The position numbers and the translations under genes are program-made. From NCBI RefSeq assembly GCF_016026235.1, contig NZ_CP065613.1: DNA of 64,000 bases; one strand, written 5' to 3'. The notes beneath the pieces were generated by a model. The model saw nothing but the letters and a program-made list of their open reading frames with translations, ran no database searches and was not told the DNA's origin. Positions 45,185-56,114 of the stretch are shown here, in pieces (within the stretch, counting starts at the first letter, position 1; every line of letters begins with the position of its first letter). This DNA comes from Escherichia coli (lineage in GTDB: Bacteria > Pseudomonadota > Gammaproteobacteria > Enterobacterales > Enterobacteriaceae).

Positions 45185-45674
45185 AAGGAAATGTGATCTC
45201 AACCACTTAAAGCTAGTGCAAACCACAGGATTAGCAGCAAATCAATGCAATACAGCGCAGAAAATCTGTATCTAAGTGCAAAAAATGGCCGTTGCGTATT
45301 TTCAAAAAGCGGAAGGTAACTCTATAAATTAAGTAAAGGAGTGAAACAGTTTCACAAGTAAAATATCCAGTGTGCTCCATCTCATTCTTAATAGATTTAT
45401 TAAGATCATCTTTTTAGATGGCACTTTCATCAGGAATGAAGAAGAAACCCTTGCTTAAATGAATCTGATGAACATAAGGGAAACCAGTATTCACGCTGGA
45501 TCAGCGTCGTTTTAGGTGAGTTGTTAATAAAGATTTGGAATTGTGACACAGTGCAAATTCAGACACATAAAAAAACGTCATCGCTTGCATTAGAAAGGTT
45601 TCTGGCCGACCTTATAACCATTAATTACGAAGCGCAAAAAAAATAATATTTCCTCATTTTCCACAGTGAAGTGA

Positions 45675-48386
<2,712 letters not shown>

Positions 48387-48428
48387 GTTTAGCCGGATAA
48401 TGCATTGGATCCGGTTTACATCTTTACA

Positions 48429-49448
<1,020 letters not shown>

Positions 49449-50675
49449 TTATCCTTTTACGCACACCACCTGACGCAGGGTGTAGATAACTTCCACCAGA
49501 TCGCTTTGTGCCGCCATCACCGCATCAATATCTTTATACGCCATCGGGATTTCGTCGATCACTTCGGCATCTTTACGGCATTCCACATGCGCGGTAGCAC
49601 GAATTTGATCTTCCACGCTGAACAGTTTTTTCGCTTTAGTACGGCTCATTACCCGCCCGGCACCGTGGCTGCACGAACAGAACGACTCTTCATTTCCCAG
49701 CCCACGGACGATAAAGCTTTTTGCTCCCATCGAACCGGGAATAATTCCATATTGACCAGCACGCGCAGACACCGCGCCTTTACGCGTCACGTAGATCTCT
49801 TCACCAAAGTGCTGTTCTTTTTGCACATAGTTGTGGTGACAGTTGATCTCTTCCATCGCCAGCGTTTGTGGCTGTCTGACCGTTTTCTGCGTAATGCTCT
49901 GCAACGCCGTTACCACGTTTTCCATCATCGCATCGCGGTTAAGGCTGGCGAAAAGCTGCGCCCAGGCCACGGCTCTTAGGTAATCATCAAAGTATTCCGT
50001 ACCTTCCATAAAGTACGCCAGGTCGCGCGATGGCAACGTTTCAAGCTGGTCCTGCATCTCTTTTTGTGCCAAATCGATAAAGTAAGTCCCGATGGCGTTA
50101 CCAATTCCGCGTGAACCGGAGTGCAGCATAATCCACACCTGGTCCGACTCATCAAGGCAGATTTCAATAAAGTGGTTACCCGTTCCCAGCGTTCCCAGGT
50201 GTTTATAGTTGTTAGTGTTAAGGAAACGCGGATATTTTTGCGTTAACCACTGATAACCGGCTTCAAGCTCAGCCCATTTCGCATCGACGTTAACAGGCGG
50301 GTTTTCCCATGCGCCTTTATCACGTTTACAACGGCCAGTGGTACGTCCGTGCGGCACCGCAGTTTCAATCGCCTGACGCAGCTCTGCCAGGTTTTCAGGC
50401 AGGTCTGCCGCCGTTAACGCGGTACGCAGCGCGTTCATTCCACAGCCAATATCCACGCCCACCGCCGCCGGAATAATCGCCCCTTTGGTCGGGATCACGC
50501 TACCAATGGTGGAACCTTTACCCAGGTGTACATCAGGCATTACCGCAATATGTTTGAAAATAAACGGCATCTTCGCCGTATTAATAAGTTGCTGACGCGC
50601 ATCGGCTTCTACCGGCACGCCTTTGGTCCACATTTTTACCGGGGCATTTTCAATGGTCAGTAATTCGTAATTCAT
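49449..50675 (-). CDS. rtcB: RNA-splicing ligase RtcB
   Basis: Track ORF trimmed to ATG at 50673-50675 (MNYELLTIENAPVKMWTKGVPVEA..., 408 aa); this start is consistent with the sigma54 promoter placement. Confidence 0.95.
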   Translation of the reverse strand: MNYELLTIENAPVKMWTKGVPVEADARQQLINTAKMPFIFKHIAVMPDVHLGKGSTIGSVIPTKGAIIPAAVGVDIGCGMNALRTALTAADLPENLAELRQAIETAVPHGRTTGRCKRDKGAWENPPVNVDAKWAELEAGYQWLTQKYPRFLNTNNYKHLGTLGTGNHFIEICLDESDQVWIMLHSGSRGIGNAIGTYFIDLAQKEMQDQLETLPSRDLAYFMEGTEYFDDYLRAVAWAQLFASLNRDAMMENVVTALQSITQKTVRQPQTLAMEEINCHHNYVQKEQHFGEEIYVTRKGAVSARAGQYGIIPGSMGAKSFIVRGLGNEESFCSCSHGAGRVMSRTKAKKLFSVEDQIRATAHVECRKDAEVIDEIPMAYKDIDAVMAAQSDLVEVIYTLRQVVCVKG

Positions 50676-50711
50676 TTTGTTTTTCTCTTTCGTTGTTTGC
50701 TGTCGTGATAA

Positions 50712-50728
50712 TTGCAACCGTCGTGCCA
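50712..50728 (-). promoter_or_regulatory. sigma54 (-24/-12) promoter of rtcBA
   Basis: The minus strand reads TGGCACGACGGTTGCAA, an exact fit to TGGCACG-N4-TTGCA, about 40 bp upstream of the rtcB start and adjacent to the divergent sigma54 activator gene rtcR. Confidence 0.85.
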
Positions 50729-50862
50729 GAAAATTAAATAAGCAGATTAATTTTTTAATTCATTGTTTTTAAATAGGTTAAATCTTTACGTCCGTAAACG
50801 GAGATTTTCCACAAAACCAATTCACCGATAATGAAATATCGTCTTTTATAAGGATATCTAAG

Positions 50863-52461
50863 ATGCGTAAAACAGTGGCTTTTGGCTTTGTCGGAACGGT
50901 GCTGGATTATGCCGGGCGCGGCAGTCAGCGCTGGTCGAAATGGCGTCCGACACTCTGTTTATGCCAGCAAGAATCGTTGGTCATCGATCGACTGGAATTA
51001 TTGCATGACGCCCGCTCGCGCTCGCTATTTGAAACGCTTAAACGCGATATCGCCAGCGTTTCGCCAGAAACAGAAGTGGTGAGCGTTGAGATTGAACTGC
51101 ATAACCCGTGGGATTTCGAAGAGGTTTACGCTTGCCTGCATGATTTCGCCCGTGGTTACGAGTTTCAGCCAGAAAAAGAAGACTATTTAATTCACATTAC
51201 CACCGGCACCCACGTCGCGCAGATTTGCTGGTTTCTGCTGGCGGAAGCGCGTTACCTGCCCGCCCGGCTGATACAATCTTCACCTCCGCGCAAAAAAGAA
51301 CAGCCGCGCGGCGCAGGTGAAGTGACGATTATCGATCTCGATTTAAGCCGTTATAACGCCATCGCCAGCCGCTTTGCCGAGGAACGCCAGCAAACGCTTG
51401 ATTTTCTTAAGTCCGGCATTGCCACGCGTAACCCCCACTTCAACCGCATGATTGAGCAGATCGAAAAAGTGGCGATCAAATCCCGCGCGCCGATTCTGCT
51501 TAACGGTCCAACCGGCGCGGGCAAGTCATTTCTGGCGCGACGCATCTTCGAGTTAAAACAGGCGCGGCATCAGTTTAGCGGCGCGTTTGTGGAAGTGAAC
51601 TGCGCCACCCTGCGCGGCGATACCGCCATGTCGACGCTGTTTGGTCATGTAAAAGGCGCGTTTACCGGGGCGCGGGAATCTCGTGAAGGTTTATTACGCA
51701 GCGCCAACGGCGGAATGTTGTTTCTTGATGAGATTGGCGAACTGGGCGCAGACGAACAGGCAATGCTGCTTAAAGCCATTGAAGAAAAAACCTTTTATCC
51801 GTTTGGCGGCGATCGCCAGGTGAGCAGTGATTTTCAGCTTATCGCCGGAACGGTGCGTGATTTGCGCCAGCTGGTTGCCGAAGGAAAATTTCGCGAAGAC
51901 CTGTACGCGCGGATCAATCTCTGGACCTTCACCCTGCCGGGGCTGCGCCAGCGCCAGGAAGATATTGAACCTAACCTGGATTATGAAGTGGAGCGCCACG
52001 CCTCACTCACTGGCGACAGCGTGCGTTTTAACACCGAAGCGCGGCGTGCCTGGCTGGCCTTTGCGACATCTCCCCAGGCAACATGGCGCGGTAACTTTCG
52101 CGAGCTTTCTGCCAGCGTCACGCGGATGGCTACCTTTGCCACTAGCGGACGCATCACTCTGGACGTGGTTGAAGATGAGATAAACCGTCTGCGCTATAAC
52201 TGGCAGGAGAGTCGCCCCTCCGCGCTTACGCAGCTACTGGGCGCAGAGGCAGAAAACATCGATCTCTTCGACCGTATGCAACTGGAACACGTTATCGCTA
52301 TCTGCCGCCAGGCAAAGTCGCTTTCCGCAGCCGGACGCCAGCTTTTTGACGTTTCGCGCCAGGGCAAAGCCAGCGTCAATGACGCGGATCGGCTACGCAA
52401 ATACCTGGCGCGTTTTGGTCTGACGTGGGAAGCATTGCAGGATCAGCACAGCTCCAGTTGA
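50863..52461 (+). CDS. rtcR: sigma54-dependent transcriptional activator of rtcBA
   Basis: 532-aa ORF with an AAA+ sigma54-interaction domain ([16 protein letters not shown]..., GAFTGA loop). Confidence 0.95.
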
Positions 52462-53201
52462 ATATGGTGGTCCGTCAGCACCTGCATCACGCTTACTGGC
52501 GGCGGGGCGTCGGTGTAGACGGCATCTACCATGCTGATGCTGCCCATATTGACCATCGCGTTACGGCCAAATTTCGAGTGATCGACAACCAGCATAACGT
52601 GGCGCGAGTTCTCAATAATGGCGCGTTTGGTGCGAACTTCGTGGTAATCGAACTCCAGCAGCGAGCCGTCGCTATCGATGCCGCTTATCCCCAGAATGCC
52701 GAAATCAAGGCGGAACTGGGAGATAAAATCGAGCGTCGCTTCGCCAATGATCCCGCCATCGCGGCTGCGTAATTCGCCACCGGCGAGAATAATACGGAAA
52801 TCCTATTTTACCATCAGCGTGTTAGCAACGTTAAGATTGTTGGTGACAATGCGCAAATTGCTGTGATTGAGCAGCGCGTGCGCCACCGCTTCCGGCGTGG
52901 TGCCGATATCGATAAACAGCGTCGAGCCATTGGGGATTTGCTCCGCCACTTTGCGGGCGATGCGCTCTTTTTCTTCGGTCTGGGTGGCTTTACGATCGTG
53001 CCACGGCGTGTTAACCGAACTGGAAGGCAGCGCCGCACCGCCATGATGGCGCAGGATCAGGTTTTGCTCCGCCAGCTCATTGAGGTCGCGGCGAATAGTC
53101 TGCGGGCTGACGGAGAAGTGCTCCACCAGCTCCTCGGTACTGACATAACCCTGCTGTTTAACCAGTTCGATAATACCGTTGTGACGTTGTGTTTGTTTCA
53201 T
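52443..53201 (-). pseudogene. glpR: glpR (DeoR-family repressor of the glp regulon) interrupted by an in-frame TAG at codon 133
   Basis: From ATG 53199-53201: MKQTQRHNGIIELVKQQGYVSTEEL...NLNVANTLMVK, then TAG (52803-52805), then same-frame DFRIILAGGELRSRDGGIIGE... to the stop at 52443. That is 252 codons in all; I recall intact GlpR reading ...MVKEDFRII..., so Glu is replaced by a stop. Confidence 0.8.
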
Positions 53202-53217
53202 TTCTAAATCCCTGGAA

Positions 53218-54060
<843 letters not shown>

Positions 54061-54092
54061 TTATTCCACACAAAAGGGGACAGTATAAAGCG

Positions 54093-54497
<405 letters not shown>

Positions 54498-54557
54498 TTA
54501 TACATATCACTCTAAAATGTTTTTTCAATGTTACCTAAAGCGCGATTCTTTGCTAAT

Positions 54558-54575
54558 ATGTTCGATAACGAACAT
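54558..54575. promoter_or_regulatory. GlpR operator in the glpE/glpD divergent control region
   Basis: ATGTTCGATAACGAACAT is a perfect palindrome matching the GlpR operator half-site pattern TGTTCGAT/ATCGAACA, 34 bp upstream of the glpD ATG. Confidence 0.75.
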
Positions 54576-54608
54576 TTATGAGCTTTAACGAAAGTGAATG
54601 AGGGCAGC

Positions 54609-56114
54609 ATGGAAACCAAAGATCTGATTGTGATAGGTGGCGGCATCAATGGTGCTGGTATCGCGGCAGACGCCGCTGGACGCGGTTTATCCGTGCTGAT
54701 GCTGGAGGCGCAGGATCTCGCTTGCGCGACCTCTTCCGCCAGTTCAAAACTCATTCACGGTGGCCTGCGCTACCTTGAGCACTATGAATTCCGCCTGGTC
54801 AGCGAGGCGCTGGCTGAACGTGAAGTGCTGCTGAAAATGGCCCCGCATATCGCCTTCCCGATGCGTTTTCGCCTGCCACATCGTCCGCATCTGCGCCCGG
54901 CGTGGATGATTCGCATTGGTCTGTTTATGTACGATCATCTGGGTAAACGCACCAGCCTGCCGGGATCAACTGGTTTGCGTTTTGGCGCAAATTCAGTGTT
55001 AAAACCGGAAATTAAGCGCGGATTCGAATATTCCGACTGTTGGGTAGACGATGCCCGTCTGGTGCTCGCCAACACCCAGATGGTGGTGCGTAAAGGCGGC
55101 GAAGTGCTTACTCGTACTCGTGCTACTTCTGCTCGTCGCGAAAACGGCCTGTGGATTGTGGAAGCGGAAGATATCGATACCGGCAAAAAATATAGCTGGC
55201 AAGCGCGCGGCCTGGTTAACGCCACCGGCCCGTGGGTGAAACAGTTCTTCGACGACGGGATGCATCTGCCTTCGCCTTATGGCATTCGCCTGATCAAAGG
55301 CAGCCATATTGTGGTGCCGCGCGTGCATACCCAGAAGCAAGCCTACATTCTGCAAAACGAAGATAAACGTATTGTGTTCGTGATCCCGTGGATGGACGAG
55401 TTTTCCATCATCGGCACTACCGATGTCGAGTACAAAGGCGATCCGAAAGCGGTGAAGATTGAAGAGAGTGAAATCAATTACCTGCTGAATGTGTATAACA
55501 CGCACTTTAAAAAGCAGTTAAGCCGTGACGATATCGTCTGGACCTACTCCGGTGTGCGTCCGCTGTGTGATGATGAGTCCGACTCGCCGCAGGCTATTAC
55601 CCGTGATTACACCCTTGATATTCATGATGAAAATGGCAAAGCACCGCTGCTGTCGGTATTCGGCGGTAAGCTGACCACCTACCGAAAACTGGCGGAACAT
55701 GCGCTGGAAAAACTAACGCCGTATTATCAGGGTATTGGCCCGGCATGGACGAAAGAGAGCGTGCTACCGGGTGGCGCCATCGAGGGCGACCGCGACGATT
55801 ACGCAGCTCGTCTGCGCCGTCGCTATCCATTCCTGACTGAATCGCTGGCGCGTCATTACGCACGCACTTACGGCAGCAACAGCGAGCTGCTGCTCGGCAA
55901 TGCGGGGGCGATAAGCGACCTCGGGGAGGATTTCGGTCATGAGTTCTACGAAGCGGAACTGAAATACCTGGTGGATCACGAATGGGTCCGCCGCACCGAC
56001 GATGCCCTTTGGCGTCGCACAAAACAAGGCATGTGGCTGAATGCGGATCAACAATCTCGTGTGAGTCAGTGGCTGGTGGAATATACGCAGCAGAAGTTGT
56101 CGCTGGCGTCGTAA
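54609..56114 (+). CDS. glpD: aerobic sn-glycerol-3-phosphate dehydrogenase (FAD)
   Basis: Track ORF trimmed to ATG at 54609 (METKDLIVIGGGINGAGIAADAAGRGL..., 501 aa) with an FAD-binding GxGxxG. Confidence 0.97.
   Translation: METKDLIVIGGGINGAGIAADAAGRGLSVLMLEAQDLACATSSASSKLIHGGLRYLEHYEFRLVSEALAEREVLLKMAPHIAFPMRFRLPHRPHLRPAWMIRIGLFMYDHLGKRTSLPGSTGLRFGANSVLKPEIKRGFEYSDCWVDDARLVLANTQMVVRKGGEVLTRTRATSARRENGLWIVEAEDIDTGKKYSWQARGLVNATGPWVKQFFDDGMHLPSPYGIRLIKGSHIVVPRVHTQKQAYILQNEDKRIVFVIPWMDEFSIIGTTDVEYKGDPKAVKIEESEINYLLNVYNTHFKKQLSRDDIVWTYSGVRPLCDDESDSPQAITRDYTLDIHDENGKAPLLSVFGGKLTTYRKLAEHALEKLTPYYQGIGPAWTKESVLPGGAIEGDRDDYAARLRRRYPFLTESLARHYARTYGSNSELLLGNAGAISDLGEDFGHEFYEAELKYLVDHEWVRRTDDALWRRTKQGMWLNADQQSRVSQWLVEYTQQKLSLAS

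Follow-up and report, generated by a model that had tools for sequence, protein, structure and literature searches.

Rtc RNA-repair systems and the locus examined here

In Escherichia coli K-12, expression of the RNA-repair genes rtcB and rtcA requires both sigma-54 and the activator RtcR, as found with reporter and in vitro assays (PMC9650030, PMC5175333). The K-12 promoter upstream of rtcB has also been recovered by sigma-54 ChIP-seq (site OS35, with the 17-mer CTGGCACGACGGTTGCA at a distance of 28; PMC4591121 Table 1), and its EcoCyc status is experimentally confirmed (PMC4591121). A second arrangement is the Salmonella-type rsr-Y RNA-rtcBA operon (PMC7790460; Karls lab 2023, PMC9879122), in which rtcR is divergent, roughly 135 nt separate a sigma-54 promoter from the start codon of rtcR, rtcB-rtcA come last in the operon, and rsr (Ro60) and YrlA/YrlB stand between the promoter and rtcB. 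The E. coli arrangement resembles other sigma-54 systems of the species, such as pspF/pspA, norR/norVW, and prpR/prpBCDE, in combining a GG-N10-GC promoter, a divergent AAA+ activator with a GAFTGA motif, and an A/T-rich IHF-type region; RtcR is unlike the PspF/NorR/PrpR-type activators in that its sensory domain is of the CARF type (PF06956), and the output of the system is the healing and sealing of RNA ends rather than a metabolic or envelope function.

We analysed a 64-kb stretch of E. coli DNA, hereafter the window, that carries the genes malT, rtcA, rtcB, rtcR, glpR, glpG, glpE, and glpD in the same order and at the same chromosomal position (malT, rtcA rtcB, rtcR, glpR) as in K-12 MG1655. 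The Rtc genes, which have the same lengths as their K-12 counterparts (408, 338, and 532 aa for RtcB, RtcA, and RtcR), 98-99% protein identity to them, and the same rtcB ATG, are as follows.

48429..49445, minus strand: rtcA, RNA 3'-terminal phosphate cyclase, 338 aa (RefSeq CDS; NF003247, PF01137 and PF05189)
49449..50675, minus strand: rtcB, RNA 3'-phosphate/2',3'-cyclic-phosphate to 5'-OH ligase, 408 aa (RefSeq CDS; PF01139)
50863..52461, plus strand: rtcR, divergent sigma-54 activator (bacterial enhancer-binding protein), 532 aa (NF038308, PF06956, PF00158)

Between rtcB and rtcR lies an intergenic region of 187 nt (50676-50862), with the rtcR ATG at 50863; the span of the original prediction, 50675-50862, takes in this region plus the A of the rtcB ATG. 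We consider it very likely that this region serves as divergent control region for the Rtc RNA-repair module of E. coli, and that a sigma-54 promoter within it drives rtcBA, with rtcB translated from the ATG at 50675.

The closest relative recovered was E. coli FDAARGOS_943 (NZ_CP065615.1), which matched a 4.3-kb stretch at a rounded identity of 100%, the next genome standing at 98.9%. The two differ by eight SNPs over 10.3 kb (about 99.9% identity), and FDAARGOS_943 is hence a very close relative and not the same record. Damaging SNPs were seen in the neighbouring glp genes of both, namely a stop at Glu133 of glpR in the window and a stop at Gln44 of glpG in the sister record. The rpoN gene is located outside the 64-kb window.

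The Salmonella-type operon differs from the locus in the window, which has neither rsr nor YrlA/YrlB and whose predicted transcription start is only 27 nt from rtcB; the window does not belong to the rsr-Y RNA-rtcBA type. Rfam gave no matches in the window, and none when the region 50400-51000 was searched at E <= 1, while the same search served as its own positive control by detecting YrlA upstream of rtcB in both Klebsiella spallanzanii and Superficieibacter electus, with YrlB in addition in K. spallanzanii. The 529-aa ORF between the promoter and rtcB of K. spallanzanii is presumably rsr (Ro60), and the leader of K. oxytoca is 161 nt long; all three Klebsiella and Superficieibacter loci that we examined have a long leader, or else rsr and/or Y RNA genes, before rtcB. 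For most of the 80 distant loci, no promoter directly upstream of rtcB came up under the strict sigma-54 pattern. The module in the window is of the minimal E. coli type, and in its short leader it is like other sigma-54 promoters of E. coli, for which distances of 25-45 nt are listed (PMC4591121 Table 1).

A unique consensus sigma-54 promoter upstream of rtcB

The sequence of the region bears out the original prediction that an exact-consensus sigma-54 promoter precedes rtcB. The motif TGGCACGACGGTTGCAA is found at 50712-50728 on the minus strand and is the only exact match in the window, where 100 shuffles gave an expectation of 0. A search for TGGCAC-N5-TTGCA with 0 mismatches likewise returned 50713-50728 on the minus strand as the sole site in 64 kb. 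When up to two mismatches were allowed, the pattern matched 28 times, compared with 28.5 expected, and is therefore not enriched; because these relaxed matches are at chance level, only the exact match is informative, and we claim no further sigma-54 sites in the window. The elements between the intergenic motif and the rtcB start are listed below.

50712..50728, minus strand: core sigma-54 promoter of rtcBA (-26 to -10), TGGCACG-ACGG-TTGCA-A, with GG at -25/-24 and GC at -13/-12
50715..50717, minus strand: TTG that opens a mechanically called 422-aa ORF; part of the -12 element, not a start codon
50702, minus strand: predicted transcription start (+1, a C, preceded by A50703), placed by the -12/-24 spacing rule
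50676..50701, minus strand: remainder of the A-rich leader of 27 nt, including a weak Shine-Dalgarno-like element (AAGAG, 50685-50689) placed 9 nt before the ATG

Within TGGCAC-N5-TTGCA, the GG at -24 and the GC at -12 are exactly 10 bp apart. The motif sits in the 187-nt rtcB-rtcR intergenic region and points to rtcB, with the predicted +1 at 27 nt from the ATG, and the divergently encoded RtcR provides a cognate AAA+ activator with a GAFTGA loop. When its flanking C is included, TGGCACGACGGTTGCAA also fits the extended sigma-54 consensus YTGGCACGrNNNTTGCW, which was reportedly derived by Barrios et al. in 1999. In an alignment of the window with K-12, CFT073, E67, and E. albertii, a 28-nt block around the motif is unchanged in all five sequences, and the -24/-12 element and its flanks are identical to those of K-12. 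Sigma-54 binding and transcription dependent on sigma-54 and RtcR, shown for the identical K-12 sequence, would carry over to the promoter in the window.

In E. coli, the majority of the sites recovered by sigma-54 ChIP-seq fall within genes, and their function is unclear (PMC4591121); moreover, the native rtcBA promoter of K-12 has been reported to be 'very weak in vitro' (PMC9650030), which could suggest that the motif is a chance or non-productive site, like many of those intragenic ones, and that rtcBA is driven by other means. The weakness of a native consensus promoter in vitro indicates that promoter strength is not predictable from the consensus match. Against a chance or non-productive site stand its intergenic position in the correct orientation, 27 nt from rtcB and beside a dedicated divergent activator, the expectation of 0 exact matches by chance, the invariance of the motif across Escherichia, and the published dependence of expression on RtcR and sigma-54 (PMC9650030, PMC5175333). 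An equivalent promoter is moreover found in other genera: in Escherichia, Klebsiella, Superficieibacter, Kosakonia, Enterobacter, Pantoea, and Pectobacterium, the -24 element and the start codon of rtcR are 134-137 nt apart, and the persistence of this spacing across seven enterobacterial genera points to a constrained architecture. We regard the chance or non-productive site as extremely unlikely and treat the motif as the promoter of rtcBA.

Transcription start and leader

The transcription start had been predicted to lie about 25 nt upstream of the ATG at 50675. Taking the C of TTGCA (50714) as position -12, we arrive at a predicted +1 of C50702, or 27 nt upstream, which is near enough to the earlier figure; this placement is rule-based and good to 1-2 nt. 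In vitro transcription from the native K-12 promoter was primed by the dinucleotide ApC at -1/+1 (PMC9650030); this agrees with A50703/C50702 in the window and so supports the predicted start. The distance of 28 in K-12 is equivalent to the 27 of the window because the K-12 leader has one base more.

Alignments placed this difference in the A-run at 50688-50690, where the window has a strain-specific 1-nt deletion; relative to K-12, the leader thus has one A fewer (27 compared with 28 nt), and it also has a SNP at -3 (C for G). The leader of E. albertii is 26 nt long. For the leader of the window together with the first codons, the minimum free energy was 0 kcal/mol, that is, no structure is predicted. 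The exact 76-nt promoter-plus-leader allele of the window was present in two of 5426 complete E. coli genomes, compared with 2716 that carry the K-12 allele exactly. Eleven other matches were sampled evenly down the ranking, and all ten that span the leader have one base more than the window query; the eleventh (23AR0998) covers only the first 37 nt of the 76-nt query. The leader deletion, which is the sole strain-specific feature of the finding, looks neutral.

The start codon of rtcB

A list of longest ORFs gives rtcB as a 422-aa ORF (49449..50717) that begins with TTG and is open in the window, whereas the RefSeq CDS (49449-50675, 408 aa) begins with the ATG at 50675-50673. The geometry of the promoter had been used earlier to argue against the longer frame, and this argument stands: the TTG is part of the -12 element, and it is in frame only in this allele. 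The predicted +1 comes 15 nt after the TTG at 50717, so that no transcript from the sigma-54 promoter can contain this TTG. Read-through from farther upstream is unlikely, since the neighbouring rtcR is divergent and there is no same-strand gene upstream.

Comparison among relatives provides a second line of evidence. In the window, TTG and ATG are 42 nt apart and thus in frame with each other. In the four relatives they are out of frame, at 43 nt for each of K-12, CFT073, and E67 and at 41 nt for E. albertii. Indels of one and two bases are thus tolerated in the leader, as in non-coding DNA, and only the loss of one leader A in this lineage has brought the TTG at 50717 into frame, so that the longer ORF is an accident. 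Between the rtcB ATG and the nearest upstream stop, K-12, E67, and E. albertii have no in-frame ATG, GTG, or TTG. When RtcB was compared with 80 other species by tblastn, the matches began at residues 1-6 of the 408-aa protein with a single exception (Superficieibacter electus, at residue 10); at these 80 loci, in-frame stops are mostly found within a few dozen codons upstream, and the 14 extra N-terminal residues of the 422-aa ORF have no counterpart among the 80 homologues. This comparative evidence is stronger than the promoter-geometry argument. The N-terminal extension of the 422-aa ORF contains LQLSRQQTTKEKNK, and the 408-aa RtcB begins (M)NYELLTIENAPVK. A PDB sequence search was uninformative with regard to the start, as it returned only longer archaeal, Thermus, and eukaryotic structures whose N-termini extend beyond the E. 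coli protein.

For the 422-aa protein to be made from the TTG, a transcript would have to come from farther upstream, for instance from a sigma-70 promoter in the A/T-rich intergenic DNA. The ORF is indeed open in the window, and some conditions have been reported to induce rtcBA without RtcR, 'likely due to ... the use of alternative promoters' (PMC9650030). A sigma-70 consensus scan of 48300-51000 recovered neither an alternative rtcB promoter nor an rtcR promoter, however, and no Shine-Dalgarno sequence could be read before the TTG at 50717. With a frame that depends on a 1-nt deletion whose exact allele is found in 2 of 5426 genomes, extra residues unmatched among homologues, and a RefSeq annotation that uses the ATG, translation from the TTG is highly improbable. 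The evidence supports the ATG at 50675 as the start of rtcB and the 422-aa longest-ORF call as wrong.

Integrity of the rtcR, rtcB, and rtcA genes

The prediction further held that the rtcR/rtcB/rtcA module is complete and intact, and we found all three genes to be full-length, free of internal stops, and in possession of their catalytic and motif residues. RtcB matched Pfam PF01139 over profile positions 1-426 of 426 (E = 2.9e-133) and retains D75, C78, H168, H185, H281, H337, R341, and R345. Of these, Cys78, His185, His281, and His337 (E. coli numbering) are what we take to be the metal-binding and guanylylation residues of RtcB from the work of Tanaka, Chakravarty, and Shuman. RtcA scored 783 bits against NCBIfam NF003247 (cutoff 333), matched PF01137 and PF05189 (RTC and RTC_insert), and contains His308, the adenylylated histidine. 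Catalytic mutants of both enzymes, RtcB H337A and RtcA H308A, have been described (PMC5175333).

The NF003247 alignment starts at the second Met of RtcA, there being another ATG one codon upstream of the annotated start, at 49448, from which a 339-aa reading is also open. The junction between the two genes reads GGA TAA ATG ATG, and the position of rtcA directly after the rtcB stop TAA suggests that rtcB and rtcA are translationally coupled. Downstream of rtcA, the 42-nt gap to malT holds a hairpin that lacks a U-tract on the rtcA strand and falls short of significance (z = -0.62). We claim no rtcBA terminator; terminator-like matches in 48300-51000 were at chance level only.

RtcR scored 850 bits against NCBIfam NF038308 (cutoff 650), an equivalog model that covers residues 1-527, and its domains comprise PF06956 (RtcR/CARF, residues 2-185) and PF00158 (AAA+ sigma-54 interaction, residues 187-354). 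A Walker A motif (GPTGAGKS) begins at residue 215, GAFTGA at 265, and a Walker B match (MLFLDE) at 285. The C-terminal HTH had no Pfam match at E <= 0.001, and its support as a DNA-binding domain comes only from the full-length equivalog match. Relative to K-12, there are five substitutions in RtcB, six in RtcA, and five in RtcR, none of which falls at a known essential position.

An intact Rtc module is the majority state in E. coli but is not universal, as about 10% of complete genomes have lost it. Of the 5426 complete genomes, 4848 have at least 80% of rtcBA; in about 575, at least two different deletions have left no more than the 3' ends of rtcR and rtcA, and in at least one genome an IS1 is inserted in the 5' end of rtcB. 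Selection for the module is therefore not absolute, and together with the damaging SNPs scattered nearby (in glpR here and in glpG of the sister record), this leaves some room for a module that looks intact but has become silent or functionally decayed in this lineage, through either the leader deletion or the amino-acid substitutions. The genes themselves have neither stops nor frameshifts, however; every catalytic and motif residue that was checked is intact, the few substitutions spare the essential positions, and the 1-nt leader change leaves the Shine-Dalgarno-like element, its spacing, and the lack of structure as before. We therefore consider such decay very unlikely and read the module as intact.

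Candidate enhancer and IHF sites

The literature reports both an upstream activator site (UAS) for RtcR and an IHF site at rtc (PMC9650030, PMC5175333); an 'rtc IHF binding site' is mentioned without coordinates (PMC9650030), and the supplements of that paper do not give the sequence of either the RtcR UAS or the IHF site. The enhancer of a sigma-54 promoter, to which its activator binds, is usually found 80-150 bp upstream. In the window, three elements of the intergenic DNA are candidates for these roles.

50826..50841, unstranded: palindrome CGATA-N6-TATCG, a candidate enhancer (UAS) for RtcR, spanning -139 to -124 and situated 22-37 nt upstream of the rtcR ATG
50791..50802, unstranded: second palindrome, TCCGT-TT-ACGGA, at -100 to -89, a putative alternative or additional activator site
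50737..50768, unstranded: candidate IHF bending site, an A/T-rich block between the palindromes and -24, with three overlapping 1-mismatch matches to WATCARNNNNTTR

In E. albertii, Klebsiella oxytoca, and Superficieibacter electus, the palindrome CGATA-N6-TATCG keeps its offset from the start of rtcR, and in CFT073 it has one arm mismatch; its conservation is inseparable from that of the overlapping leader and promoter of rtcR. On the plus strand, the palindrome holds a -10-like hexamer, GATAAT (50827-50832). The second palindrome, TCCGT-TT-ACGGA, is shared by the window, CFT073, E67, and E. albertii and has one mismatch in K-12; it was not found in Klebsiella and is absent outside Escherichia among the loci compared. 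About 12 SNPs separate the window from K-12 in the enhancer-side intergenic DNA, one of which makes TCCGTTTACGGA a perfect palindrome in the window and not in K-12. As a main UAS we ranked TCCGT-TT-ACGGA below CGATA-N6-TATCG because of its absence outside Escherichia. Within the A/T-rich block, the sub-block AAAACAATGAATTAAAAAATTAA is unchanged in five Escherichia sequences.

The enhancer and IHF assignments are candidates that derive from palindromes and from weak consensus matches in A/T-rich DNA. We tentatively propose, as a possibility that may well prove wrong, that the 16-bp palindrome CGATATTTCATTATCG (50826-50841) is the RtcR enhancer, in which case, given the -10-like hexamer within it, RtcR bound there would activate rtcBA and auto-repress rtcR from one site. 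The assignment of the RtcR UAS to CGATATTTCATTATCG may be unpublished, as the literature that we searched yielded no UAS coordinates.

A proposed mechanism for rtcBA activation

In the model that we propose, which follows the standard sigma-54 scheme, the holoenzyme of RNA polymerase with sigma-54 would occupy the -24/-12 element at 50712-50728 and wait there as a closed complex. RtcR would bind upstream, probably at the palindrome at -139..-124 and/or that at -100..-89, with an A/T-rich, IHF-type bend between enhancer and promoter. An RNA-damage signal would then relieve the N-terminal CARF-type domain of RtcR; in Salmonella, the signal has been described as tRNA fragments ending in 2',3'-cyclic phosphate (PMC7790460), and the CARF domain in E. 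coli has RtcA and RtcB themselves as binding partners (PMC9650030). Once relieved, the AAA+ domain of RtcR would touch sigma-54 through its GAFTGA motif, and ATP hydrolysis would open the promoter. Transcription would start at about C50702, and the 27-nt unstructured A-rich leader would bring the ribosome to the ATG at 50675, with the 408-aa ligase RtcB made first and then the 338-aa cyclase RtcA, to which it would be tightly coupled. RtcA converts 3'-phosphate ends into 2',3'-cyclic phosphate ends, and RtcB joins these to 5'-OH ends.

The motif, its uniqueness and conservation, the reading frame, and the intactness of the genes come from the present analysis, and sigma-54 binding, the dependence on RtcR, and the signal are taken from the K-12 literature. 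The exact +1 in this strain, the enhancer site, and the IHF site are the predicted parts of the model.

Significance

The promoter, its dependence on sigma-54 and RtcR, and the gene starts are already published for K-12, whose promoter is identical, and nothing here is new. The primary paper on the rtcBA promoter and start site is said to be that of Genschik, Drabikowski & Filipowicz (1998, J Biol Chem 273:25516). Since about 10% of complete E. coli genomes are without the module, the record of its intactness in this strain has modest descriptive value. The finding matters solely as an annotation check: the RefSeq and K-12 start (408 aa, from the ATG at 50675) is right, and the call made by taking the longest ORF, which gives 422 aa with the TTG at 50717 as its start, is wrong. 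It also makes a teaching case, in that the mistaken start codon belongs to the promoter, being the TTG of its -12 element, and was brought into frame by a lineage-specific single-base deletion. The finding leaves knowledge of Rtc regulation unchanged, for a module that is of current interest in responses to tRNA and rRNA damage and in transient tolerance to ribosome-targeting antibiotics.

Start codon of rtcA

The start of rtcA, which lies on the minus strand with rtcB, is marked by two candidate codons:

49445-49451, minus strand, two ATG codons adjacent to each other and abutting the TAA stop codon of rtcB

The first ATG corresponds to the mechanical ORF start and yields a protein of 339 aa, while the second yields 338 aa. 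The second ATG is preferred by the RefSeq annotation as well as by the NCBIfam profile, and the spacing to the AAGGA Shine-Dalgarno sequence is also better for this codon than for the first.

Loss and disruption of rtc genes in Escherichia

Among 5426 complete E. coli genomes, approximately 575 (~10.6%) are missing rtcB, the promoter and the greater part of both rtcA and rtcR. We found at least two distinct deletions in the species, each of which leaves rtcR and rtcA with nothing but their 3' ends, and in one genome, 23AR0998, the 5' end of rtcB is interrupted by IS1A. The reading frame of rtcB in the Escherichia albertii type strain, NBRC 107761 (positions 3001-4224 of record L003), apparently ends after 262 codons (ORF 3001-3789), although all 408 RtcB residues were aligned to the same locus by tblastn at 98% identity; this rtcB may be a pseudogene or reflect an assembly error.

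Leaders and Y RNAs upstream of rtcB in other genera

The Salmonella operon has two Y RNAs, whereas the loci of Superficieibacter electus and Klebsiella spallanzanii have more copies: three YrlA-type modules lie in tandem immediately 5' of rtcB in S. electus (L007, 2578-2951), and one YrlB and two YrlA occupy the same place in K. spallanzanii (L004, 2659-2977). The leader of Klebsiella oxytoca NBRC 105695 (L006, 2814-3000) has 161 nt between the sigma-54 promoter and rtcB; rsr is absent from this region, and Rfam detected neither YrlA nor YrlB there. This long leader might be what is left of a degenerated Y RNA, or else an RNA that has gone unrecognised.

Comparison with the closest database relative

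Across 10.3 kb (45300-55600), eight SNPs separate the window from E. coli FDAARGOS_943 (NZ_CP065615.1), which is its best match in the database; seven of them are transitions and six change a protein. Both sequences carry a single nonsense change: in the window Glu133 of glpR is replaced by a stop, and in NZ_CP065615.1 Gln44 of glpG is; the remaining protein changes are D463G and A518T in malT, S176L in rtcA, and T156A in glpD. The ratio of damaging changes is high for relatives so close, and its source could be errors in sequencing, a lineage with a mutator phenotype, or passage in the laboratory.

The nonsense change in the window affects the following gene:

52443-53201, minus strand, annotated glpR, with a premature TAG at 52803-52805

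Codon 133 reads TAG in the window (A at 52805) and GAG (Glu) in the FDAARGOS_943 record, a difference predicted to leave 132 of the 252 residues of GlpR. In K-12 MG1655 glpR is likewise a pseudogene, but through a lesion other than the codon-133 TAG. Given the predicted truncation of GlpR, the glycerol-3-phosphate genes may be derepressed in this isolate.
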